IMG/VR virus record: IMGVR_UViG_2681813262_000007
Length of the DNA: 16,402 nt
From: a virus
Taxonomy: Duplodnaviria > Heunggongvirae > Uroviricota > Caudoviricetes
Direction: 5' to 3' (one strand)
Positions 660 to 15,903 of this stretch are shown piece after piece (within the stretch, counting starts at the first letter, position 1; the number at the start of each line of letters is the position of its first letter). Both the position numbers and the translations under genes were made by a program. Under the pieces are notes generated by a model. That model worked only from the letters and a program-made list of their open reading frames with translations, was not told where the DNA came from and did no database searches.

Positions 660-2441
660 ATGGCATTTAAACACTATGACGTGGTCAGGGCGGCATCGCC
701 GTCAGACCTTGCGAAACGACTGACACAAAAACTGAAGGAGGGCTGGCAGCCGTTTGGTAGTCCGGTGGCCATAACCCCTTATACCCTGATGCAGGCGATT
801 GCAGCAGAAGGTGATGTGGTCGTCAGTGGTGCAACTGAGCCGGAGTGGTACTACGTCATCGTACTGGCCGGGCAATCCAATGCCATGGCTTACGGTGAAG
901 GTCTTCCGCTTCCGGATTCATACGATGCGCCCCATCCGCGCATTAAGCAACTGGCCCGTCGTAACACAGTGACTCCCGGTGGTGAAGTATGCGTATTTAA
1001 CGACATCATTCCTGCTGACCATTGTCTGCATGATGTTCAGGATATGAGTACGATTAACCATCCCCGGGCTGACCTGAGCAAAGGGCAGTACGGCTGTGTC
1101 GGACAGGGCTTACATATTGCCAAAAAACTGCTTCCGTATATCCCTAATAATGCGGGGATCCTGCTGGTACCATGCTGTCGTGGTGGTTCGGCATTCACCC
1201 AGGGCACGGAGGGGACATTCAGCGAGTCCACGGGAGCCAGTCAGGATTCGGCTCGCTGGGGAGTGGGTAAGCCGTTATATCAGGATCTGCTTTTCCGCAC
1301 GAAGGCAGCATTGCAGAAAAACCCGAAAAACGTTTTGCTGGCGATATGCTGGATGCAGGGGGAATTCGATATGACGAATGCCAGTTACGCCCAGCAGCCA
1401 GCAGCATTTCTTGCAATGGTACAGCAGTTCCGTGCTGACCTTGCCGGGCTGGCAGCGCAGTGTCACGGTGGAAGTCCGGCATCAGTCCCCTGGATTTGTG
1501 GCGACACGACATACGCGTGGAAACAAGAACACGGTACGCAATATGAAGTGGTATATGGTGCATATAAAGGTAAAGAATCCCAGCAGATTTATTTTGTTCC
1601 CTTTATGACCGATGGTAGCGGAGTTAATACACCGACAAACAACCCGTCAGAAGATCCTGATATTGCCGGGTCTGGTTATTACGGTTCGGCATCCCGAACG
1701 AACAAAAACTGGGTATCATCAAATCGCCCGACGCATTTCAGCTCATGGGCGCGTCGTGGCATTATTCCCGATCGTATGGCAACTGCTATTCTGAACGTAG
1801 CCGGTCGCACCTTAGCCTTCATTAGTGGTAAGGCACCGGAAATCAAACCCTCGCCCGGCGGCGACACGCCATCGGGGCCGTCTGAAGATGCATCCATTCA
1901 GTTGTCAGATGGTGTATTTAAGATCACCAAGCAGAGCAATAAAGCCTGGTCCCTGACGCGCCCGGTGGATGACGCAGTCTCCCTGCTGACACGGGGTGGC
2001 AGACTGAGCTGTAAGTTTCGACTGTCAGGCGCACTGACCAACAACCAGTTCGGTCTGGGAATTTATCTGTATACCGATGTAGCGTTACCTGACGTCGTGG
2101 CGATGACCGGGACTGGTAACCCGTTCCTGATGTCGTTCTTCACCCAGACCACAGACGGCAAACTGAATCTGATGCATCACAAGAAAGCCGGAAACACAAA
2201 GTTGGGCGAGTTCGGGAATTACAGTAACGACTGGCAGACGCTGGAGCTGGTGTTCACCGCCGGCAGTGCCACGGTTACTCCGAAACTGAATGGAGTGGCT
2301 GGCCCGGCATTCCAGGTCATAAAAGACAGTCTGACAGTGGGACTAAATGCACTGACGCTGACGGATATTACCAAAAATGCAACGTATGGCGTTGAGATAG
2401 AAAGTCTGGTGCTGGAGATAAATGCACCGGCATCATCATAA
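660..2441 (+). CDS. nanS: Prophage-encoded sialate O-acetylesterase (NanS-p-like): N-terminal DUF1737-like domain, SASA/SGNH-type esterase core, C-terminal ~200-aa putative carbohydrate-binding domain
   Basis: 593-aa ORF with GGAGG RBS (651-655). Contains the GQSN serine motif ([16 protein letters not shown]) and a later WMQGEFD block typical of sialate O-acetylesterases. Architecture and position (upstream of the holin) match NanS-p morons of E. coli lambdoid and Stx prophages. Family assignment is from memory, not a search. Confidence 0.8.
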
Positions 2442-2525
2442 AAAGTGAGCCAGTCAAATGGAAGGTATCGTTAAACTCACCGGTAGTGTCAGTGGGTCGT
2501 CTGAGACGCCTGCATGAGTTATCAG

Positions 2526-2557
2526 AGCCATCAGTACTTAACTGGTGGCTTTTTTAT
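2526..2557 (+). terminator. Rho-independent terminator between the esterase gene and the holin (tR'-like position)
   Basis: 10-bp stem agccatcagt/actggtggct (one G-U pair), 5-nt loop, followed by tttttt (2551-2556). Confidence 0.5.
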
Positions 2558-2590
2558 TGTTGTCAGCTTCCGGATAACGGGAGACGGGGT

Positions 2591-2806
2591 ATGTACCAGA
2601 TGGAAAAAATCACAACAGGTGTGTCATACACCACGTCAGCGGTGGGAACGGGCTACTGGTTCCTGCAGTTGCTGGACAGGGTTTCCCCGTCTCAGTGGGC
2701 GGCAATAGGCGTGCTGGGGAGTCTGCTGTTTGGGCTGCTGACATATCTGACTAACCTGTATTTCAAAATCAGAGAGGACCGTCGTAAGGCTGCACGGGGA
2801 GAGTAA
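2591..2806 (+). CDS. S: Class II pinholin (phage 21 S21 / Stx-phage S family), dual-start motif MYQM
   Basis: 71 aa, two TMDs (SAR-like TMD1 [22 protein letters not shown]; TMD2 [23 protein letters not shown]), C-terminal [13 protein letters not shown] nearly identical to remembered S21. GGGAGACGGGG RBS upstream. The 2486 start in the ORF track is an upstream extension across the terminator and is not credible. Confidence 0.85.
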
Positions 2807-2810
2807 TTCA

Positions 2811-3161
2811 ATGACTCAAAACTATGAACTGATTGTGAAAGGGATCCGCAATTTTGAGAATAAAGTTACGGTAACTTTAGCGTTACGGGACAAAAAACGC
2901 TTTGACGGTGAAATTTTTGACCTGGACATCTCGCTGGACCGTGTTGAAGGTGCCGCGCTGGAGTTTTATGAGGCAGCAGCCAGAAGGAGCATCAGACAGG
3001 TCTTCCTGGATGTTGCTGCCGGGTTATGTGAAGGGGATGAGCAGTCGCCGGAAAAGCGCCCCGTAATTTTAGAGGCGCAGAATGTGTGGATAACCTACAA
3101 AGGAAAGCTACCAGGAAGAATTACTGGTTCTCTGAAGACTCCTCCGGAATCACAACCTTAA
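2811..3161 (+). CDS. Hypothetical 116-aa soluble charged protein inserted between holin and endolysin; possibly YdfR/DUF1327-like
   Basis: ATG 4 nt after the holin stop, GGGAGA RBS, no TM segment. A gene of similar size occupies the same holin-lysozyme slot in E. coli prophage Qin (ydfR) as I recall it; sequence homology not verified. Confidence 0.65.
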   Translation: MTQNYELIVKGIRNFENKVTVTLALRDKKRFDGEIFDLDISLDRVEGAALEFYEAAARRSIRQVFLDVAAGLCEGDEQSPEKRPVILEAQNVWITYKGKLPGRITGSLKTPPESQP

Positions 3162-3224
3162 GTCACTGACCAGAACAGATAAACCTGTCCGTGGGCAGAA
3201 ACCGATAAATCCTGATAAATATCC

Positions 3225-3758
3225 ATGAACGCAAAAATCAGATACGGCCTGTCGGCTGCCGTTCTGGCACTGATTGCCGTCGGTGCGCCCGCGCCTGATA
3301 TTCTCGACCAGTTTCTGGATGAAAAAGAGGGTAACCACACTACGGCATACCGCGATGGTTCCGGCATCTGGACCATCTGTCGGGGGGCCACGATGGTGGA
3401 TGGAAAACCCGTTTTTCCCGGTATGAAACTGTCGAAGGAAAAATGCGACCAGGTCAACGCCATTGAGCGTGATAAGGCGCTGGCATGGGTGGAGAAAAAC
3501 ATCAAAGTGCCATTGAGCGAACCCCAGAAAGCGGGGATCGCGTCATTCTGTCCGTACAACATTGGTCCCGGTAAGTGTTTCCCGTCGACGTTTTATAAAC
3601 GAATTAATGCAGGTGATCGCAGGGGAGCGTGTGAGGCGATTCGCTGGTGGATTAAGGACGGTGGCAGAGACTGCCGTATTCGTTCAAACAACTGCTACGG
3701 TCAGGTATCCCGTCGTGACCAGGAGAGTGCGCTGGCGTGCTGGGGTATCGACAGATAA
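3225..3758 (+). CDS. R: SAR endolysin (T4-lysozyme-like muramidase, GH24, R21 type)
   Basis: 177 aa. N-terminal weakly hydrophobic Gly/Ala-rich signal-anchor-release domain (LSAAVLALIAVGAPAP); catalytic E-X8-D-X5-T triad (E GNHTTAYR D GSGIW T). Pairs functionally with the pinholin. Confidence 0.9.
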   Translation: MNAKIRYGLSAAVLALIAVGAPAPDILDQFLDEKEGNHTTAYRDGSGIWTICRGATMVDGKPVFPGMKLSKEKCDQVNAIERDKALAWVEKNIKVPLSEPQKAGIASFCPYNIGPGKCFPSTFYKRINAGDRRGACEAIRWWIKDGGRDCRIRSNNCYGQVSRRDQESALACWGIDR

Positions 3759-3850
3759 GCAGAATATTTTGCTGAAAAATAAGGCATGGCCACGCGGGCG
3801 GATAACACGAAATCCTGCGAACTGGCGAAACGTAAGTGAATAAAAGTAAA

Positions 3851-3887
3851 AACCCCGTTTGTTGGCAGCAAGCGGGGTTTTGTTTTT
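3851..3887 (+). terminator. Strong rho-independent terminator downstream of the endolysin
   Basis: 11-bp stem aaccccgtttg/caagcggggtt (one G-U), 7-nt loop, followed by ttgttttt. Confidence 0.6.
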
Positions 3888-3952
3888 ATGGCAGTAAGCT
3901 ATGGGAGGCTGCCTTGATTGATTTTAGCAAACTGATTAGGGAGTTGCGACTC

Positions 3953-4048
3953 ATGATTAGTCAATTACCAAACTGGAAATTTTTGCTGGTCTGGAGCATC
4001 CCTTTTTTATGGGTAGTATCCCAGTTAATTGTGGCAATTAAGGGGTAG
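3953..4048 (+). CDS. Putative 31-aa hydrophobic peptide (MISQLPNWKFLLVWSIPFLWVVSQLIVAIKG)
   Basis: ATG with AGGGAG RBS 9 nt upstream; single predicted TM helix. Caveat: the locus is T-rich, which favours hydrophobic codons by chance. Confidence 0.3.
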   Translation: MISQLPNWKFLLVWSIPFLWVVSQLIVAIKG

Positions 4049-4050
4049 CT

Positions 4051-4182
4051 ATGTCAGACAAACTCATAACGCCGGCAAAGGTCCTGTGTGTGATTGTCGG
4101 TATTTCATTTTCACTAATGCTGGTTGCTCTTTTTCTGTCCCTCGCCTGGGTGATGTTGTCTTCGTCGGGGCTGCTGGGGTGA
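4051..4182 (+). CDS. Putative 43-aa single-TM peptide (MSDKLITPAKVLCVIVGISFSLMLVALFLSLAWVMLSSSGLLG)
   Basis: ATG 2 nt after the previous stop with AAGGGG RBS; clean TM helix. Too short for the 60-aa ORF track and in a different frame from track ORF 4029..4301. Confidence 0.4.
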   Translation: MSDKLITPAKVLCVIVGISFSLMLVALFLSLAWVMLSSSGLLG

Positions 4183-4184
4183 CA

Positions 4185-4301
4185 GTGACTGATGACATCA
4201 GCAGAGCGCTGGCTTTTGCTATTAAGTGGGTGGCTGTTGGTATTGCTGTGTCTCCGATGCTATATGGGCTGGCAAAACTGGTCATTGCGCTGAAATCGTG
4301 A
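4185..4301 (+). CDS. Putative 38-aa hydrophobic peptide, GTG start (MTDDISRALAFAIKWVAVGIAVSPMLYGLAKLVIALKS); paralog of the next peptide
   Basis: GTG 2 nt after the previous stop. N-terminus and core align with the 4313..4399 peptide (MTDDISRALAFAIKWVAV vs [18 protein letters not shown]), and the conservation is at the protein level in this frame. Confidence 0.4.
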   Translation: MTDDISRALAFAIKWVAVGIAVSPMLYGLAKLVIALKS

Positions 4302-4312
4302 ACTTTAAAAAG

Positions 4313-4399
4313 ATGAGTGCTGAACTTATTCGGGCAATGGCATTTGCCATTCGTATTGTGGCCATTGCTGTTCTGGTCTGGGCAATCCGTTGGTGGTGA
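4313..4399 (+). CDS. Putative 28-aa hydrophobic peptide ([28 protein letters not shown]); paralog of the previous peptide
   Basis: ATG start; stop falls 1 nt before the Rz ATG; paralogy with 4185..4301. Weak RBS. Confidence 0.4.
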
Positions 4400-4400
4400 T

Positions 4401-4868
4401 ATGAACCGTGTTCTGTGTGTGGTGATTATTGTCATGCTGGTGGCCTGTGGTGCGCTTAGTCTGGGGCTGAATCATTACCGTGATAACGCCATTACCTACA
4501 AAGCCCAGCGCGACAAAAATGTCAGAGAACTGAAGCTGGCGAACGCGGCAATTACTGACATGCAGATGCGTCAGCGTGATGTTGCTGCGCTCGATGCAAA
4601 ATACTCGAGGGAATTAGCCGATGCGAGAGCTGAAAATGAAACTCTTCGCGCTGACGTTGCCGCTGGTCGTAAGCGCCTGCGTATCAACGCCACCTGTCCA
4701 GGTCCCGTGCGTGAAGCCACCGGCACCGCCCGCGTGGATAATGCAACCGGCCCCCGACTGGCAGACACCGCTGAACGGGATTATTTCACCCTCAGAGAGC
4801 GGCTGATGACGATGCACAAGCAACTGGAAGGGGCGCAGGAATATATCCGCACTCAGTGCCTGAAATAA
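4401..4868 (+). CDS. Rz: Rz i-spanin (inner-membrane spanin subunit)
   Basis: 155 aa; N-terminal TM ([18 protein letters not shown]) and coiled-coil periplasmic domain. Closely resembles remembered lambda Rz ([17 protein letters not shown]...[24 protein letters not shown]). The 4317 start in the track is an upstream extension. Confidence 0.9.
4621..4806 (+). CDS. Rz1: Rz1 o-spanin (outer-membrane lipoprotein), embedded in the +1 frame of Rz
   Basis: 61 aa with signal peptide and lipobox (LVVSAC), proline-rich mature region ([30 protein letters not shown]) matching lambda Rz1. An alternative start at 4636 is possible. Confidence 0.85.
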
Positions 4869-5302: not shown

Positions 5303-5851
5303 ATGAACGTCAATAAGAAAAAACTGGCCGATATTTTTGGCGTTGATGTCAGGACCATCACCGCCTGGCAGAGTCAGGGGTTACCACTAGTTTCTGGTGG
5401 AGGGAAAGGGACTGAATCAGTTTTTGATACAACTGCTGCCATTCAGTGGTATGCGCAGAGGGAAGCTGATATTGAAAACGAAAAACTCCGTAAAGAGATC
5501 GAGGATTTGAGGGCTGCCAGCGAATCAGACCTTCAGCCCGGCACCATTGATTACGAACGTTACCGACTGACGAAGGCACAGGCCGATGCACAGGAGCTGA
5601 AAAATGCTCGTGAGGAAGGCCTTGTCCTCGAGACGGAGTTATTTACCTACATCTTTCAGCGAGTGGCACAGAATATATCAGGGATCCTTGTCCGTGTCCC
5701 TCAGACACTGCAGCGTAAATACCCTGATATATCACCCGTACATCTTGATGCTGTGAAAACTGAAATCGCGAAAGCATCCGATGTGGCTTCTGAAGCCGGT
5801 GAGAATGTGCGCAGGTGGATTGATGATTTCAGACGAACTGAGGGCGGCTAA
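5303..5851 (+). CDS. nu1: Terminase small subunit (gpNu1)
   Basis: 182 aa; N-terminal winged-HTH region [29 protein letters not shown] and [29 protein letters not shown] closely match lambda Nu1. GGGGGAG RBS. Confidence 0.95.
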
Positions 5852-7751
5852 TTCTGCAGGAGCGATAGCAACCGGCCTCCTTGCGCTAAAAATTCCTGTC
5901 CCTCTGACGACAGTTCAGTGGGCAGATCGACATTATTACCTTCCGAAAGAGTCATCTTACACCCCGGGGCGGTGGGAAACACTGCCGTTTCAGGTTGCCA
6001 TCATGAACAGCATGGGGAATGACCGGATCCGCACTGTTAATCTGATTAAATCTGCCCGTGTTGGTTATACAAAGATGTTGCTGGGAGTGGAGGCTTATTT
6101 TATTGAGCATAAATCACGCAACAGCCTTCTTTTCCAGCCCACGGATTCTGCTGCTGAAGATTTTATGAAATCTCATGTGGAACCCACGATCAGGGATGTG
6201 CCGGTTTTACTCGATCTTGCACCGTGGTTTGGGCGTAAACATCGTGATAATACCCTCACGCTGAAACGTTTTTCATCGGGCGTGGGCTTCTGGTGCCTGG
6301 GCGGGGCTGCCGCTAAAAACTACCGTGAAAAATCCGTGGACGTGGTCTGCTATGACGAACTTTCCTCGTTCGAACCGGATGTCGAAAAAGAGGGTTCGCC
6401 AACCCTGCTTGGGGATAAACGTATTGAGGGCTCTGTATGGCCCAAATCCATTCGCGGCTCGACGCCTAAAATCAAAGGCACCTGCCAGATCGAAAAAGCG
6501 GCCAACGAGTCGGCGCATTTCATGCGTTTTTATGTGCCCTGCCCACACTGTGGGGAGGAGCAGTATCTGAAATTTGGCGATGAATCCACGCCTTTTGGCC
6601 TTAAATGGGAGAAGGACAGCCCCGAAAGCGTTTTCTACCTCTGTGAACATCATGGCTGCGTGATCCATCAGTCTGAGCTTGACCAGAGCAACGGGCGGTG
6701 GATCTGTGAAAACACGGGGATGTGGACCCGTGACGGTCTGACGTTTTTCAGCGCCGCGGATAATGAAATTCCGCCGCCGCGCTCCATCACGTTCCATATC
6801 TGGACGGCGTACAGTCCGTTCACCACCTGGGTACAGATAGTCTATGACTGGCTGGATGCACTGAAAGATCCCAACGGCCTGAAAACCTTTGTGAACACCA
6901 CGCTGGGCGAGACCTGGGAAGAGGCCGTGGGCGAAAAACTCGATCACCAGGTACTGATGGATAAGGTCGTGCATTACACGGCGGCGGTGCCAGCCCGGGT
7001 GGTTTATCTGACGGCGGGCATTGACTCGCAGCGAAACCGTTTTGAGATGTATGTCTGGGGATGGGCACCGGGAGAGGAAGCTTTTCTGGTGGATAAAATC
7101 ATCATTATGGGCCGTCCCGATGAGGAAGAGACGCTGTTACGTGTGGATGCGGCGATCAACAAAAAATACTGCCATGCAGACGGAACCGAAATGACCATTT
7201 CCCGTGTCTGCTGGGACACCGGGGGGATCGATGGTGAAATTGTCTATCAGAGGTCAAAAAAACACGGTGTTTTCCGGGTGCTGCCGGTAAAAGGCGCATC
7301 TGTCTATGGCAAGCCGGTGATCACCATGCCGAAAACCCGCAATCAGCGGGGCGTGTATCTGTGTGAAGTGGGGACGGACACCGCAAAAGAAATTCTCTAT
7401 GCCCGTATGAAAGCCGATCCCACGCCTGCGGATGAAGCCACGTCGTATGCCATCCATTTTCCTGATGATCCGGAGATTTTTTCGCAGACAGAGGCGCAGC
7501 AACTGGTCGCGGAAGAGCTTGTGGAGAAGTGGGAAAAAGGAAAGATGCGTCTGCTGTGGGATAACAAAAAGCGGCGTAACGAAGCGCTGGACTGCCTGGT
7601 GTATGCCTATGCGGCATTACGTGTGTCCGTGCAACGCTGGCAGCTTGATCTGGCTGTACTGGCAAAATCCCGGGAAGAAGAGACGACCCGGCCAACCCTT
7701 AAAGAACTGGCAGCGAAGCTGTCCGGAGGAGTGAATGGTTACAGTCGCTGA
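5823..7751 (+). CDS. A: Terminase large subunit (gpA)
   Basis: Near-collinear identity to remembered lambda gpA ([25 protein letters not shown], [30 protein letters not shown]...). Start chosen at the ATG at 5823 to give a lambda-like overlap with Nu1; the ORF is open from 5781, so the start is uncertain by up to 42 nt. Confidence 0.9.
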
Positions 7752-7941
7752 ACTGCAGGCGCTGCGTCAGGCGCGCCTTGATTTATTAACCGGTAAACGG
7801 GTGGTGTCTGTCCAGAAAGATGGTCGCAGAATTGAATATACGGCGGCTTCTCTGGATGAGCTTAACCGGGCGATCAATGATGCGGAGTCGGTACTGGGGA
7901 CAACCCGACGTCGCCGTCGTCCGCTGGGAGTGAGGTTATGA
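7735..7941 (+). CDS. W: Head-tail connector/joining protein gpW
   Basis: 68 aa; LTGKRVVSVQKDGRRIEYTAASL ... RRRRRP matches lambda gpW. Confidence 0.9.
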   Translation: MVTVAELQALRQARLDLLTGKRVVSVQKDGRRIEYTAASLDELNRAINDAESVLGTTRRRRRPLGVRL

Positions 7942-9530
7942 AACGAACGCCTGTCCTGATTGATGTGAACGGCGTTCCGCTTCGTGAGAGTCTCAGCTAC
8001 AACGGGGGCGGCGCAGGATTTGGCGGGCAAATGGCGGAGTGGTTGCCACCGGCGCAGAGTGCCGATGCAGCCCTGCTGCCTGCGTTGCGTCTGGGGAATG
8101 CCCGGGCAGATGATCTGGTGCGCAATAACGGGATAGCGGCTAATGCGGTGGCCCTGCATAAGGATCATATTGTCGGGCATATGTTTCTGATCAGCTACCG
8201 TCCGAACTGGCGCTGGCTGGGGATGCGGGAGACTGCGGCAAAAAGTTTTGTCGATGAGGTGGAGGCGGCCTGGTCAGAATACGCAGAAGGGATGTTTGGC
8301 GAGATCGACGTGGAAGGGAAACGCACGTTTACGGAATTTATCCGTGAAGGTGTGGGCGTTCATGCGTTTAACGGCGAAATCTTTGTGCAGCCGGTCTGGG
8401 ATACGGAAACCACGCAGTTATTCCGTACGCGTTTTAAAGCCGTGAGTCCGAAACGGGTGGACACGCCAGGACGCGGTATCGGGAACCGTTTTCTGCGGGC
8501 CGGTGTGGAGGTTGATCGATATGGCCGTGCCGTTGCGTACCATATCTGTGAGGATGATTTTCCTCGCTCCGGGAGTGGACGATGGGAACGGATCCCGCGT
8601 GAACTACCCACCGGGCGTCCGGCCATGCTGCATATTTTCGAGCCGGTGGAGGACGGGCAGACCCGTGGAGCCAATCAGTTTTACAGCGTTATGGAACGGC
8701 TGAAGATGCTGGATTCCCTGCAGGCAACACAGCTTCAGTCGGCCATAGTGAAGGCGATGTATGCAGCGACGATTGAAAGTGACCTTGATACCGAAAAGGC
8801 CTTTGAATATATCGCCGGTGCGCCGCAGGGGCAGAAGGATAATCCGCTTATTAATATTCTGGATAAGTTCTCCACCTGGTATGACACGAATAGCGTGACG
8901 CTGGGCGGTGTCAAAATTCCGCACCTTTTCCCCGGTGATGATCTGAAACTTCAGACCGCGCAGGATTCAGACAATGGATTTTCGGCGCTTGAACAGGCGC
9001 TGCTGCGGTATATCGCCGCCGGTCTTGGCGTTTCCTACGAACAGTTGTCCCGTGATTACTCGAAGGTCAGTTACTCAAGTGCCCGCGCATCCGCCAATGA
9101 GTCGTGGCGCTATTTTATGGGGCGGCGAAAATTTATTGCGTCCCGGCTGGCCACGCAGATGTTTTCCTGCTGGCTGGAAGAGGCACTTCTTCGGGGGATT
9201 ATTCGTCCGCCACGGGCACGGTTTGATTTTTATCAGGCGCGATCAGCCTGGTCACGGGCTGAGTGGATTGGAGCCGGAAGAATGGCCATTGACGGGCTCA
9301 AGGAGGTTCAGGAATCAGTGATGCGCATTGAGGCCGGACTGAGCACGTATGAGAAAGAGCTGGCGCTGATGGGCGAGGATTATCAGGACATTTTCCGCCA
9401 GCAGGTCAGGGAATCTGCAGAGCGGGAAAAAGCCGGACTCTCACGTCCGGTGTGGATAGCGCAGGCGTATCAGCAGCAGATAGCGGAGAGTCGCAGGCCG
9501 GAAGAGGAGACAACACCACGTGAGACGTAA
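7938..9530 (+). CDS. B: Portal protein (gpB)
   Basis: 530 aa in the lambda gpB position and of matching size; ATGA overlap with the W stop. Confidence 0.9.
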   Translation: MKRTPVLIDVNGVPLRESLSYNGGGAGFGGQMAEWLPPAQSADAALLPALRLGNARADDLVRNNGIAANAVALHKDHIVGHMFLISYRPNWRWLGMRETAAKSFVDEVEAAWSEYAEGMFGEIDVEGKRTFTEFIREGVGVHAFNGEIFVQPVWDTETTQLFRTRFKAVSPKRVDTPGRGIGNRFLRAGVEVDRYGRAVAYHICEDDFPRSGSGRWERIPRELPTGRPAMLHIFEPVEDGQTRGANQFYSVMERLKMLDSLQATQLQSAIVKAMYAATIESDLDTEKAFEYIAGAPQGQKDNPLINILDKFSTWYDTNSVTLGGVKIPHLFPGDDLKLQTAQDSDNGFSALEQALLRYIAAGLGVSYEQLSRDYSKVSYSSARASANESWRYFMGRRKFIASRLATQMFSCWLEEALLRGIIRPPRARFDFYQARSAWSRAEWIGAGRMAIDGLKEVQESVMRIEAGLSTYEKELALMGEDYQDIFRQQVRESAEREKAGLSRPVWIAQAYQQQIAESRRPEEETTPRET

Positions 9531-11025
9531 TCTTTCACACATTATTGCAGCAGCATTCAATGAACCGCTGCTTCTGGAGCCCGCCTATGCGCGGGTTTTC
9601 TTTTGCGCGCTGGGGCGCGAGATGGGGGCAGCAAGTCTTTCGGTACCGCAACAGCAGGTACAGCTTGATGCTCCCGGGATGCTGGCTGAAACGGACGAGT
9701 ACATGGCCGGAGGTAAACGACCGGCCCGTGTTTACCGGGTGGTGAACGGTATTGCGGTACTGCCGGTGACCGGCACGCTGGTGCACCGGCTGGGGGGGAT
9801 GCGGCCATTTTCCGGAATGACTGGCTATGACGGCATTGTCGCCTGTCTTCAGCAGGCAATGGCAGATAGCCAGGTGCGGGGCATACTGCTGGACATTGAC
9901 AGTCCGGGCGGGCAGGCCGCCGGCGCGTTTGACTGCGCTGACATGATTTACCGCCTCCGGCAGCAGAAGCCGGTCTGGGCACTGTGTAATGACACGGCCT
10001 GTTCTGCGGCCATGCTGCTGGCGTCGGCCTGCTCCCGACGGCTGGTTACCCAGACATCCCGTATCGGTTCCATTGGCGTGATGATGAGCCATGTCAGCTA
10101 TGCCGGTCATCTGGCGCAGGCCGGTGTGGATATCACGCTGATTTACTCAGGGGCGCACAAGGTGGATGGCAATCAGTTTGAAGCGTTGCCGGCAGAGGTT
10201 CGCCAGGACATGCAGCAGCGGATTGATGCGGCGCGCCGGATGTTTGCCGAAAAAGTGGCGATGTTTACCGGTCTGTCTGTTGATGCAGTCACGGGAACAG
10301 AGGCCGCTGTTTTTGAAGGTCAGTCCGGCATTGAGGCCGGGCTGGCGGATGAATTAATCAATGCGTCGGATGCCATCAGTGTGATGGCCACGGCGCTGAA
10401 CAGTAATGTCAGAGGAGGCACTATGCCGCAATTAACTGCAACGGAAGCCGCCGTGCAGGAGAACCAGCGAGTGATGGGGATCCTGACATGCCAGGAAGCG
10501 AAAGGACGTGAACAGCTTGCCACGATGCTGGCAGGGCAACAGGGCATGAGCGTTGAACAGGCCCGGGCGATTCTGGCCGCGGCGGCACCGCAGCAGCCGG
10601 TGGCATCCGCGCAGAGTGAAGCCGATCGCATTATGGCGTGTGAAGAAGCGAACGGTCGTGAACAACTGGCGGCAACGCTGGCGGCGATGCCGGAGATGAC
10701 GGTGGAAAAAGCCCGCCCGATCCTGGCGGCTGCACCACTGGCGGATGCCGGGCCCTCACTTCGTGATCAGATCATGGCCCTGGATGAGGCAAAAGGGGCA
10801 GAAGCGCAGGCTGAAAAACTGGCGGCCTGCCCGGGAATGACCGTGGAGAACGCCCGGGCTGTGCTGGCTGCGGGATCAGGTAAGGCCGAACCGGTCTCTG
10901 CATCCACAACCGCCCTGTTTGAACATTTCATGGCGAATCATTCACCGGCAGCGGTGCGGGGTGGCGTGTCACAGACGTCAGCAGACGGTGATGCGGACGT
11001 GAAAATGCTCATGGCCATGCCATGA
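9520..11025 (+). CDS. C: Head maturation protease / minor capsid protein C (S49/ClpP-like peptidase) with an extended C-terminal scaffold region
   Basis: 501 aa; N-terminal 300 aa match lambda gpC (AFNEPLLLEPAYARVFFCAL, NGIAVLPVTGTLV, GILLDIDSPGG, RRLVTQTSRIGSIGVMM, ITLIYSGAHKVDGN). The C-terminus carries three tandem ~45-aa repeats. Confidence 0.9.
   Translation: MRRNLSHIIAAAFNEPLLLEPAYARVFFCALGREMGAASLSVPQQQVQLDAPGMLAETDEYMAGGKRPARVYRVVNGIAVLPVTGTLVHRLGGMRPFSGMTGYDGIVACLQQAMADSQVRGILLDIDSPGGQAAGAFDCADMIYRLRQQKPVWALCNDTACSAAMLLASACSRRLVTQTSRIGSIGVMMSHVSYAGHLAQAGVDITLIYSGAHKVDGNQFEALPAEVRQDMQQRIDAARRMFAEKVAMFTGLSVDAVTGTEAAVFEGQSGIEAGLADELINASDAISVMATALNSNVRGGTMPQLTATEAAVQENQRVMGILTCQEAKGREQLATMLAGQQGMSVEQARAILAAAAPQQPVASAQSEADRIMACEEANGREQLAATLAAMPEMTVEKARPILAAAPLADAGPSLRDQIMALDEAKGAEAQAEKLAACPGMTVENARAVLAAGSGKAEPVSASTTALFEHFMANHSPAAVRGGVSQTSADGDADVKMLMAMP
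10423..11025 (+). CDS. nu3: Scaffolding protein Nu3-like, translated in-frame from an internal start within C
   Basis: Internal ATG at 10423 preceded by a strong AGAGGAGG SD (10411-10418) with 4-nt spacing, analogous to lambda Nu3 nested in C; 200 aa including the three repeats. Confidence 0.6.
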   Translation: MPQLTATEAAVQENQRVMGILTCQEAKGREQLATMLAGQQGMSVEQARAILAAAAPQQPVASAQSEADRIMACEEANGREQLAATLAAMPEMTVEKARPILAAAPLADAGPSLRDQIMALDEAKGAEAQAEKLAACPGMTVENARAVLAAGSGKAEPVSASTTALFEHFMANHSPAAVRGGVSQTSADGDADVKMLMAMP

Positions 11026-11061: not shown

Positions 11062-11409
11062 ATGGTGACGAAAACCATCACTGAACAGCGTGCGGAAGTA
11101 CGTATTTTTGCTGGTAATGATCCGGCTCATACCGCCACAGGCAGCAGCGGGATTTCTTCTGCAACACCGGCTCTGACGCCCCTGATGCTGGATGAAGCCA
11201 CCGGGAAACTGGTGGTCTGGGATGGACAGAAAGCCGGTAGTGCGGTTGGCATACTGGTACTGCCGCTTGAAGGCACAGAGACGGTGCTGACCTATTACAA
11301 GTCGGGGACCTTTGCGACGGAGGCAATCCGCTGGCCTGACAGTGTGGATGAACACAAAAAGGCAAATGCCTTTGCCGGCACAGCCCTGAGTCACGCGGCT
11401 CTGCCATAA
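11062..11409 (+). CDS. D: Head decoration protein (gpD)
   Basis: 115 aa; NDPAHTAT, TPLMLD, KLVVWDG, VGIL, YKSGTF, AFAGTA match lambda gpD. Confidence 0.9.
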   Translation: MVTKTITEQRAEVRIFAGNDPAHTATGSSGISSATPALTPLMLDEATGKLVVWDGQKAGSAVGILVLPLEGTETVLTYYKSGTFATEAIRWPDSVDEHKKANAFAGTALSHAALP

Positions 11410-11466: not shown

Positions 11467-12495
11467 ATGGGATTGTTTACGACCCGCCAGTTACTCGGTT
11501 ATACCGAACAAAAAGTGAAATTCCGTGCGCTGTTTCTGGAGCTGTTTTTCCGCCGTACGGTGAATTTCCACACCGAAGAGGTGATGCTGGACAAAATTAC
11601 CGGAAAAACGCCGGTGGCGGCCTATGTCTCCCCGATCGTTGAAGGAAAAGTGCTTCGCCATCGCGGTGGTGAAACCCGCGTGTTACGTCCGGGCTACGTC
11701 AAGCCGAAACACGAATTTAATTACCAGCAGGCGGTTGAGCGCCTTCCTGGTGAAGATCCGGCTCAGCTGAACGACCCGGCCTACCGTCGTCTGCGTATCA
11801 TTACCGATAACCTCAAACAGGAAGAGCACGCCATTGTCCAGGTGGAAGAAATGCAGGCGGTGAATGCCGTGCTGTATGGCAAATACACCATGGAAGGGGA
11901 TCAGTTTGATACTGTCGAGGTGGATTTCGGGCGCTCTGAAGGAAATAACATTGAGCAGGCTGACGGTAAAAAATGGTCTGAGCAGGACCGTGATACGTTT
12001 GATCCGACGCATGATATTGACCTCTACTGCGATCAGGCCAGCGGCCTTGTGAATATCGCCATTATGGACGGTACGGTCTGGCGTCTGCTGAATGGCTTTA
12101 AGCTGTTCCGCGAAAAACTGGATACCCGTCGCGGCTCAAATTCACAACTCGAAACGGCAGTGAAAGATCTGGGCGCAGTGGTGTCCTTCAAGGGGTATTA
12201 CGGCGATCTGGCCATTGTGGTGGCGAAAACGTCTTATGTGGCAGAGGACGGTACCGAAAAACGTTATCTGCCGGAGGGCATGCTGGTGCTGGGGAATACG
12301 GCGGCAGAGGGGATTCGTTGCTATGGTGCCATTAAGGATGCACAGGCGTTGTCTGAAGGAGTGGTGGCTTCTTCCCGTTACCCGAAACACTGGCTGACCG
12401 TGGGCGATCCGTCCTGTGAATTCACCATGACGCAGTCCGCTCCGCTGATGGTGCTGCCGGATCCGGATGAGTTTGTGGTGGTACAGGTGAAATAA
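11467..12495 (+). CDS. E: Major capsid protein (gpE)
   Basis: 342 aa; YVSPIV, PGYVKPKHE, VEEMQAV, EKLDTRRGSNS-LETAVKDLG, MVLGNT, QSAPLM-L-DPDEFV-VQ match lambda gpE. Confidence 0.95.
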   Translation: MGLFTTRQLLGYTEQKVKFRALFLELFFRRTVNFHTEEVMLDKITGKTPVAAYVSPIVEGKVLRHRGGETRVLRPGYVKPKHEFNYQQAVERLPGEDPAQLNDPAYRRLRIITDNLKQEEHAIVQVEEMQAVNAVLYGKYTMEGDQFDTVEVDFGRSEGNNIEQADGKKWSEQDRDTFDPTHDIDLYCDQASGLVNIAIMDGTVWRLLNGFKLFREKLDTRRGSNSQLETAVKDLGAVVSFKGYYGDLAIVVAKTSYVAEDGTEKRYLPEGMLVLGNTAAEGIRCYGAIKDAQALSEGVVASSRYPKHWLTVGDPSCEFTMTQSAPLMVLPDPDEFVVVQVK

Positions 12496-14265: not shown

Positions 14266-15018
14266 ATGGCAACACCAAATCCCCTTGAGCCGGTAAAAGG
14301 TGCCGGCACCACTCTGTGGGTTTACAACGGCAAGGGTGATGCTTATGCAAACCCGTTGTCAGACGATGACTGGCAGCGACTGGCTAAGGTGAAGGATCTG
14401 ACGCCGGGCGAGATGACGGCAGAATCCTACGATGATAACTACCTGGATGATGAAGACGCGGACTGGACCGCGACCGGGCAGGGGCAGAAATCTGCAGGTG
14501 ATACCAGTTTTACGCTGGCCTGGAAACCGGGAGAGGAAGGCCAGAAAGGGCTTATAGGCTGGTTTGAAAGCGGCGATGTCCGGGCCTATAAAATCCGTTT
14601 TCCGAATGGCACGGTGGATGTGTTTCGTGGCTGGGTCAGCAGTATCGGTAAGGCCGTGACGGCGAAAGAAGTGATCACCCGCACGGTGAAAGTCACTAAC
14701 GTGGGTAAACCTTCTGTAGCGGAAGAACGCAGCAAAATTACGCCGGTCAGTGCGATTAAGGTGACGCCGACATCCGGTACGGTGGCAAAAGGGAAAACAA
14801 CCACCCTGACGGTTTCTTTTGAGCCGGAAAGTGCAACCGACAAGACGTTCAGAGCGGTTTCCGCCGATCCGTCGAAAGCCACCATTAGTGTGAAAGATAT
14901 GACAATTACGGTAAACGGCGTGGCGACAGGTAAGGTGCAGATCCCTGTGGTGAGCGGAAATGGTCAGTTCGCCGCAGTGGCTGAAGTCACCGTTACTGAA
15001 GCGGGCGCTGCAGGGTAA
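14266..15018 (+). CDS. V: Major tail tube protein gpV with C-terminal Ig-like (Big_2) domain
   Basis: 250 aa; [105 protein letters not shown] match lambda gpV. Confidence 0.95.
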
Positions 15019-15031
15019 ACGGAGGTAATAC

Positions 15032-15463
15032 ATGTTTCTGAAAACAGAACAATTTGAATATAACGGTGTGTCTGTCACGCTTTCCGAATTGTCTGCGCTG
15101 CAGCGTATCGAGCATCTTGCCCTCCTGAAACGGCGTGCAGAACAGGCAGAATCCAGCGGCAACCTGCAGGTAAGCGTGGAAGATCTCGTCAGAACCGGCG
15201 CGTTTCTGGTGGCGATGTCCCTGTGGCATAACCATCCACAGAAAACGCAGTCACCGTCAATGAATGAGGCCGTGATGAAGATAGAGCAGGAAGTGCTCAC
15301 CACCTGGCCTGCCGATGCCATTGCCCGGGCGGAAGACGTGGTGTTGTGCCTGTCCGGGATGATCGAAGCTGTTCGTCCGGATACTGATATTACTGAAGTG
15401 GCGAAAAATAACACGCTGACTGATGATGATTTTTCTGCGGGAAAGTCTTCGACGGCGAGCTGA
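15032..15463 (+). CDS. G: Tail assembly chaperone gpG
   Basis: 143 aa; MFLKTE-FE-NGV-VTLSELSALQRIEHLAL-KR-AEQAES, TGAFLVAMSLWHNHPQKTQ-PSMNEAV--IEQEVLTTWP match lambda gpG. Confidence 0.95.
   Translation: MFLKTEQFEYNGVSVTLSELSALQRIEHLALLKRRAEQAESSGNLQVSVEDLVRTGAFLVAMSLWHNHPQKTQSPSMNEAVMKIEQEVLTTWPADAIARAEDVVLCLSGMIEAVRPDTDITEVAKNNTLTDDDFSAGKSSTAS
15439..15445 (+). other. Programmed -1 ribosomal frameshift slippery heptamer G GGA AAG, producing the G-T fusion
   Basis: The heptamer GGGAAAG sits in the G frame as gcG GGA AAG, identical to the lambda G/T slippery site. The downstream ORF (15490..15903) is in the -1 frame relative to G. Confidence 0.8.
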
Positions 15464-15489
15464 ACTTTGCCCTCAGACTGGCGCGTGAG

Positions 15490-15903
15490 ATGGGGAGACC
15501 CGACTGGCGCGCCATGCTTGCCGGGATGACATCCACCGAATATGCCGACTGGCACCGTTTTTACCGCACGCATTATTTTCAGGATACCCAGCTGGATATG
15601 CATTTTTCCGGGCTGACGTACGCTGTACTCAGCCTGTTTTTTTGCGATCCGGATATGCATCCCTCTGATTTCAGTCTGCTTGTCCCCCGGCATGAGGAAG
15701 AGCAGGTGGAGAGGCCGGATGAGGACAAAATGCTGATGCAGAAAGCGGCAGGACTTGCCGGAGGCGTCCGGTTCGGTGGGGACGGAGGGCGCGATATTTT
15801 ATCGTCTGCGGATGTGGCGGATGTCATGGTGGATGAAGCCGCATTAATGATGGCTTCAGCGGGGATTCCGGGAGGTGTGAGATATGTCCCAGCCGGTTGG
15901 TGA
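15490..15903 (+). CDS. T: gpT portion of the G-T frameshift fusion chaperone (expressed as G-T from 15032 through the -1 frameshift at 15439-15445)
   Basis: ORF in the -1 frame relative to G, following the conserved slippery site; position before the tape measure gene as in lambda. Confidence 0.8.
   Translation: MGRPDWRAMLAGMTSTEYADWHRFYRTHYFQDTQLDMHFSGLTYAVLSLFFCDPDMHPSDFSLLVPRHEEEQVERPDEDKMLMQKAAGLAGGVRFGGDGGRDILSSADVADVMVDEAALMMASAGIPGGVRYVPAGW

Follow-up and report, generated by a model that had tools for sequence, protein, structure and literature searches.

The window analysed here is a stretch of 16,402 nucleotides (nt) of tailed-phage DNA (Caudoviricetes; IMG/VR record IMGVR_UViG_2681813262_000007), and the element in question is a module of about 45 amino acids (aa) that is present in three tandem copies, named R1, R2 and R3, in the C-terminal part of a head protease-scaffold protein of the lambda C/Nu3 type encoded at positions 9520-11025. 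The triplication is the known Tri box feature of the gp5/gp6 proteins of phage 21, which are homologues of lambda C/Nu3; the modules would act as interaction units, and the geometry of the capsid is probably unchanged. The feature is not new; for decades it has been annotated in M81255.1, the record of the head operon of phage 21. What our analysis adds is the range of copy number, from one to four, across relatives, the in-frame instability of the middle copy, the prediction that the module folds into three helices, its wide occurrence although it has no curated domain model, and a trade-off between the number of copies and the length of the linker that precedes them.

In M81255.1 ("Bacteriophage 21 head gene operon"), gene 6 carries three repeat_region features, "Tri1 box", "Tri box" and "Tri3 box", with the note "function unknown; putative". 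Through an ungapped alignment of 1506 nt, these features (5542-5645, 5682-5792 and 5823-5936) are placed at positions 10490-10593, 10630-10740 and 10771-10884 of the window, overlapping R1, lying within R2 and overlapping R3, respectively. The open reading frame (ORF) is 97.1% identical in nucleotides to that of phage 21 (M81255.1 and OL657228.1), without gaps over the 1506 nt, and 98.7% identical to that of Escherichia phage 204576; at the protein level, 488 of the 501 residues (97.4%) are identical in phage 21 gp5. The lengths of the two products (501 and 200 aa) and the internal ribosome-binding site (RBS) and start are also shared with phage 21 gp5/gp6, in which the three annotated repeats coincide with R1-R3, whereas the differences consist of 13 amino-acid substitutions, seven of them in or between modules, and of the genetic background, the window being part of an Escherichia coli prophage that carries a NanS-p-like esterase and differs in its lysis region. 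The complete phage 21 genome of 2022 (OL657228.1) annotates the pair as capsid protease/scaffolding protein and scaffolding protein, and its announcement was published without discussion of the repeat (PMC9119081). In the collection of papers searched, neither the term Tri box nor the first description of the phage 21 head operon was found.

The three copies of the module

All three peptides that had been quoted as tandem copies in an earlier reading of the window made without database searches (the sequence-only reading) were found in the translation of 9520-11025, and the module size of ca. 45 aa proposed there is a fair description of units that are spaced 53 and 47 aa apart and have a folded core of ca. 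40 aa. The copies and the segments around them are listed below; HMM stands for hidden Markov model, and pLDDT, the predicted local distance difference test, is the AlphaFold2 confidence value.

10468-10590 (+): module copy R1 (Tri1 box), aa 317-357; module HMM score 78.8; predicted three-helix domain
10591-10626 (+): linker 1 (PQQPVASAQSEA); predicted flexible, with pLDDT below 50 at Nu3 residues 57-63
10627-10743 (+): module copy R2 (Tri box), aa 370-408; from local alignment and module HMM; the copy with in-frame deletions in some relatives
10744-10767 (+): linker 2 (DAGPSLRD); lower confidence at Nu3 residues 101-110, mean pLDDT 61
10768-10881 (+): module copy R3 (Tri3 box), aa 417-454; from local alignment and module HMM
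10882-11022 (+): C-terminal tail of ca. 46 aa (…TALFEHFMANHSP…DADVKMLMAMP), common to protease and scaffold

Pairwise local alignments among R1, R2 and R3 gave BLOSUM62 scores of 84-103, compared with a mean of about 25 (standard deviation about 5) for shuffled sequences (z = 12.5-15.5), and the observed score was reached in none of 2000 shuffles. Each of the single-copy PHROG profiles phrog_8399, phrog_8940 and phrog_17040, which represent Nu3 of the lambda type, also matches the protein in three stretches. On the DNA, Tandem Repeats Finder detected no repeat of the module period, an exact-seed repeat finder rendered only short families at chance level, none of them of that period, and the copies have no nucleotide repeat of more than 25 nt in common. 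With a nucleotide identity of only 58-68% between copies, the repeat escapes Tandem Repeats Finder and is visible only at the protein level.

The conserved tail that follows R3 resembles that of lambda (TALDRLMQ…DAVNDLLNTPV), and helices were predicted in it by AlphaFold2, with low confidence, at Nu3 residues 160-173 and 190-196. Of the complete relatives measured, nearly all have a tail of 38-68 aa behind their last module irrespective of copy number, and two have longer extensions. The first helix of the tail (TALFEHFM; TALDRLM in lambda) resembles the motifs EADRIMA and LRDQIMA by eye and in a BLAST alignment, over a very short stretch, and could conceivably be helix 1 of a further module in degenerate form.

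The host ORF, the nested scaffold ORF and their context

As judged from the sequence, a single reading frame would encode two proteins with a common C-terminus, an S49 prohead protease of 501 aa and a scaffold of 200 aa. The elements on which this assignment is based are the following:

9520-11025 (+): prohead protease-scaffold ORF of the lambda C/phage 21 gp5 type, 501 aa; its GTG start overlaps the end of the portal gene (ORF list and translation)
9955-10398 (+): Peptidase S49 domain, aa 146-293; Pfam PF01343, E = 1.5e-34, score of 119.6 bits (cut-off, 24.9)
10413-10418 (+): AGGAGG Shine-Dalgarno sequence, read from the sequence, 4 nt before the internal ATG at 10423
10423-11025 (+): nested in-frame ORF of a Nu3/gp6-like scaffold, 200 aa; gene 6 or scaffolding protein in phage 21 records

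The S49 (SppA-like) peptidase domain of the lambda C/Nu3 and phage 21 gp5/gp6 family is present in the N-terminal two thirds of the 501-aa protein, which is matched by the head maturation protease family phrog_53 with E = 6e-229 and is 54% identical to lambda C. The interval 10423-11025, to which the triplication had been ascribed by the sequence-only reading, is exactly that of the nested ORF, and a putative RBS of gene 6 is annotated at the homologous place in both M81255.1 and OL657228.1.

The ORF is flanked by head genes in the lambda order, namely the portal gene (7938-9530) on one side and D-like (11062-11409) and E-like (11467-12495) genes on the other, and the major capsid protein of the window has 342 aa and is 61% identical to lambda E (341 aa). 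In the whole window the order of genes is NanS-p-like esterase, lysis cassette, small and large terminase, W, portal B, C/Nu3, D, E, FI, FII, Z, U, V, G and T. The window constitutes the late region of a lambdoid prophage of E. coli, and at least 80% of its 16.4 kb is covered by a single match in 656 complete E. coli genomes.

Lambda and other named relatives

The copies present in named phages were counted by fetching the genes and running the module HMM locally, which rendered one copy in each of lambda, phi80 and HK225 and three in each of phage 21, Gifsy-1 and the window. The single copy that had been stated for lambda is correct: the peptide quoted for it is exact and occurs once, at aa 360-399 of lambda C. 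Three copies are the standard state of the whole phage 21/Gifsy-1 lineage and of 1865 complete E. coli genomes. The sequence-only reading had considered that the three copies might turn out to be a standard feature of lambda and its close relatives; this is the case for the lineage of phage 21 and Gifsy-1 but not for lambda.

The lambda-type proteins (lambda C/Nu3, and also phi80 gp5/gp6, HK225 and N15 gp5/gp6) share with the window the S49 protease, the nested scaffold ORF with an AGGAGG-preceded ATG at the homologous position, the module itself, a similar C-terminal tail and the gene order. They differ in having one module instead of three, a low-complexity linker of ca. 61-67 aa before the module instead of ca. 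21 aa, and a scaffold of 131-137 aa instead of 200 aa. In contrast, the lambda gpC homologue of Salmonella phage Gifsy-1, STM2605 (498 aa), has three modules at the same positions and a linker of ca. 21 aa, and departs from the window protein in its identity of ca. 60% in the Nu3 part and in a tail with a short extra C-terminal extension.

The enlargement of the scaffold to ca. 200 aa against ca. 131 aa in lambda, as had been proposed, holds for the nested ORF if lambda Nu3 starts at ATG 5342 (Met309 of C). This ATG (NC_001416; position 2843 of the extracted locus) is preceded by AGGAGG at 5 nt, aligns with the starts in phage 21 and in the window and gives a protein of 131 aa. On the other hand, the RefSeq annotation starts lambda nu3 at ATG 5132 (position 2633 of the extracted locus), which gives 201 aa and has no visible Shine-Dalgarno sequence, and we flag this inconsistency between the annotated start and the one preceded by a Shine-Dalgarno sequence.

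Counted from the 131-aa lambda Nu3, the net gain of the scaffold is 69 aa rather than the ca. 100 aa of two full modules, because the linker of the three-copy proteins has ca. 21 aa versus ca. 61-67 aa in the lambda type. The linker between the protease domain and the module has a median of 61 aa (range, 35-110) in single-copy proteins and 17-21 aa in multi-copy proteins, and the total length after the protease domain has a median of 145 aa in the former versus 176-208 aa in the latter. The extra modules thus appear to replace in part the long low-complexity linker, a relation that rests on few independent lineages. A linker that is shorter where the copies are more numerous fits a role of the modules as part of a tether.

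Age of the copies and selection

Between copies, amino-acid identity is 54-63% and nucleotide identity 58-68%, but third codon positions are only 34-43% identical, and 9-13 of the 19-22 codons of conserved residues (about half) differ synonymously. The low nucleotide identity and the near saturation of third positions imply that the triplication is old and has been held by selection on the protein. In three-copy relatives down to ca. 45% identity the copies align at fixed positions, and the identity between R1 orthologues of different three-copy proteins (70%) exceeds that of R1 to R2 or R3 (53%), which together indicate that the triplication predates the split between the Escherichia (phage 21) and Salmonella (Gifsy-1) phages. 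The comparisons of copies and orthologues show, therefore, copies that are old, whose synonymous sites are nearly saturated and that are kept at the protein level.

Range of copy number and deletions in the middle copy

In a set of 1.84 billion representative proteins, a profile built from 19 modules matched 1460 clusters (at 50% identity) with a threshold of E ≤ 0.001. The module is usually present once in them, and it lies C-terminally in S49 prohead proteases and scaffolds. Among the best 150 of these 1460 clusters, 137 have one full copy, ten have two and three have three; of the proteins of at least 380 aa among the same 150, 53 have one copy, one has two and one has three. Among the proteins counted, one copy is the rule and three copies are a minority state, although one that is very successful in E. 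coli prophages. A first search for homologues had rendered mostly partial proteins, so that its copy counts are lower bounds, and a search for related loci with the 200-aa protein rendered loci from Escherichia and Shigella only.

In the proteins of related prophages, R2 is affected by deletions that are always in frame. In one of them (P0022) R1 and R2 are fused exactly, with the loss of one unit, in another (P0019) R2 is wholly absent, and in a third (P0013) 30 aa are deleted within R2. In the E. coli prophage proteins P0008, P0009 (53 member sequences) and P0026, an in-frame deletion of 19 aa within R2 lies between two CTGGCGGC octamers; the window has these two identical octamers within R2 at 10666-10673 and 10723-10730, 57 nt apart.

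A variant with four copies (P0025) was found in E. coli GCA_032727965.1 (locus L007, 1-1043). Its copies 2-4 are detected on the DNA as a tandem repeat of 138 nt (3.7 copies, 77% matches), near enough to one another to imply a recent expansion. The protein has the same architecture as that of the window, and the neighbouring capsid protein is 83% identical to that of the window and equal in length, but there are four modules. A four-copy scaffold beside a capsid protein of 83% identity implies that copy number does not visibly track the type of capsid protein. Unlike in the window, the lambda-like head genes of this locus are followed by baseplate genes of a contractile tail (gp25-like, J-like), and the phage is thus a mosaic.

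Predicted fold and domain-family status

AlphaFold2 run on an alignment of the module rendered three short helices with a pLDDT of 92.5 and a predicted template modelling score (pTM) of 0.71. In the model of the 200-aa protein, the modules keep this shape at a pLDDT of ca. 70-80 while the linkers are poorly defined and the pTM is 0.27. Each copy is therefore predicted to be a compact, independently folding bundle of three helices, with an EAKGRE loop after the first and a PGMT loop after the second, and the copies are predicted to be joined by flexible Pro/Ala/Gln-rich linkers as beads on a string. The most conserved positions of the module are those of the E-A-K-G-R-E loop between helices 1 and 2 and of the P-G-M-T turn before helix 3.

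No Pfam match was found in aa 300-501 at E values up to 1, nor any NCBIfam match for the 200-aa protein at E values up to 0.1, and the only PHROG families that cover the module are whole-protein families. When the PDB sequences were searched with either the 200-aa protein or the module profile, only chance matches were obtained and no solved structure of the module. The matches to Lac repressor, a haemoglobin and designed repeat proteins were at chance level, and a ten-residue match (AKGREALAEK) to chain Un of 9hqv was also attributed to chance, since 9HQV is a Toxoplasma mitoribosome.

In predicted fold and size, the module would resemble the domains of staphylococcal protein A, GA modules, UBA/CUE domains and RuvA domain III, and the domains of protein A and the GA modules likewise occur as tandem copies on flexible linkers. 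In other phages, small helical elements at the C-terminus tie the scaffold or protease to the coat protein, as is the case of P22 gp8, where the element is a helix-turn-helix, and of P2 gpO and Mu I/Z, and in the arrangements of P2 gpO and Mu I/Z the C-terminus of the scaffold is common with the protease through fusion or nested genes. The P22 gp8, P2 and Mu elements are single, not tandem, and no similarity of them to the module was sought or found.

Possible role of the module and alternative explanations

Lambda Nu3 has been reported to contact itself, C, the portal protein B and the capsid protein E (PMC3224144). The C-terminal region shared by protease and scaffold could take both proteins into the assembling procapsid, and the module would be a protein-interaction unit within that region. 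Three copies may then provide more binding sites, or more reach, per scaffold or protease chain, and the extra modules may partly stand in for the long low-complexity linker of the single-copy proteins. An altered scaffold valency, as had been suggested for the window, would be a reasonable consequence of three copies, whereas for an altered capsid assembly, proposed along with it, we found no support in the sequences compared, and the capsid geometry is probably unchanged.

That the repeat could be an artefact, produced by collapse or expansion of a tandem repeat during assembly, was a caveat of the sequence-only reading itself, and no evidence in its favour was found. Copies that are so divergent in DNA that Tandem Repeats Finder misses them could not be confused by an assembler; of 5426 complete E. 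coli genomes, 1865 carry the 603-nt segment at 92-100% identity, with up to five per genome, and 19 phage records contain it as well; and phage 21 has been sequenced independently three times (M81255, Sanger and Illumina), the Sanger and Illumina assemblies being identical (PMC9119081). Given the divergence of the copies, the number of genomes and these independent assemblies, we discard the artefact as a virtually negligible possibility. It can also be conceived that the boxes act in DNA or RNA, as CII-type sites (TTGYN6TTGY) or as elements of translational control, the repeat in the peptide being secondary. The name "box" used in GenBank would suit this idea, as would two minus-strand CII-site annotations in the phage 21 record, of which one falls within R2; these "transcription factor CII" sites of OL657228.1 (2409-2422 and 2643-2656 of the extracted locus, corresponding approximately to 10428-10441 and 10662-10675 of the window, minus strand) are based on a pattern match alone. 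Such a role is nevertheless highly improbable, because it is the amino acids that are conserved, with third positions and the codons of conserved residues diverging as described above, because the copies share no long nucleotide repeat, and because the CII matches are simple pattern matches that occur in only one of the three copies.

A rival with more in its favour, which we nonetheless consider somewhat unlikely, is that the modules are mainly spacers that set the distance from the protease domain, or from the N-terminus of the scaffold, to the capsid-binding tail with no binding role of their own, and that stand in for the long Ser/Thr/Ala/Gln-rich linker found in lambda-type proteins. The inverse relation between linker length and copy number is in agreement with it, as are a total length after the protease domain that differs by less than two modules, and the existence of natural in-frame deletions in R2 and of the four-copy form beside very similar capsid proteins. 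However, the motif A-x-G-R/A-E, LA, M-T, A…L-A-A is kept in every copy in proteins down to ca. 45% identity while synonymous sites are saturated, and an inert spacer would not require such a conservation; the lambda-type linker itself is poorly conserved and of low complexity. More probably, the modules are interaction units. A further step, which we deem unlikely to hold, would be to regard the module as an uncurated domain family whose copy number (1-4) is a still-evolving dial and not neutral length variation, with the recent expansion to four copies and the recurrent in-frame loss of the middle one tuning scaffold valency or the protease/scaffold content per procapsid.

As a discovery the triplication has little weight, being previously described and present in roughly one in three complete E. 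coli genomes. It could be of modest value for work on phage assembly, as a widespread, uncurated module of S49 protease/scaffold proteins that is predicted to fold independently, and the natural versions with one, two, three and four copies beside nearly identical capsid proteins constitute a ready-made series for studying scaffold valency or tether length.

Other features of the window

Outside the protease-scaffold gene, the following features were observed:

660-2441 (+): 593-aa ORF with DUF1737, a SASA sialate O-acetylesterase domain and DUF6645; NanS-p-like prophage esterase upstream of the lysis cassette
2486-4868 (+): lysis cassette, with a holin ORF at 2486-2806 whose true start is probably later
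2811-3161 (+): DUF1327 ORF, between holin and endolysin
3225-3758 (+): phage lysozyme
4317-4868 (+): Rz-like spanin
5303-5851 and 5781-7751 (+): small- and large-terminase ORFs, overlapping by 71 nt as listed
15032-15463 (+): G-like ORF
15439-15445 (+): GGGAAAG slippery heptamer
15490-15903: T-like ORF
14359-15693 (-): 444-aa ORF, antisense to the V, G and T genes

With regard to the terminase genes, the large-terminase ORF as listed probably begins upstream of the real start codon. The 444-aa antisense ORF has no PHROG match; it lies in GC-rich coding DNA and is probably spurious. The slippery heptamer is located 15 nt (18 nt from start to start) before the stop codon of the G-like ORF, and together with the T-like ORF that follows it constitutes a G/GT -1 frameshift arrangement of the lambda type.

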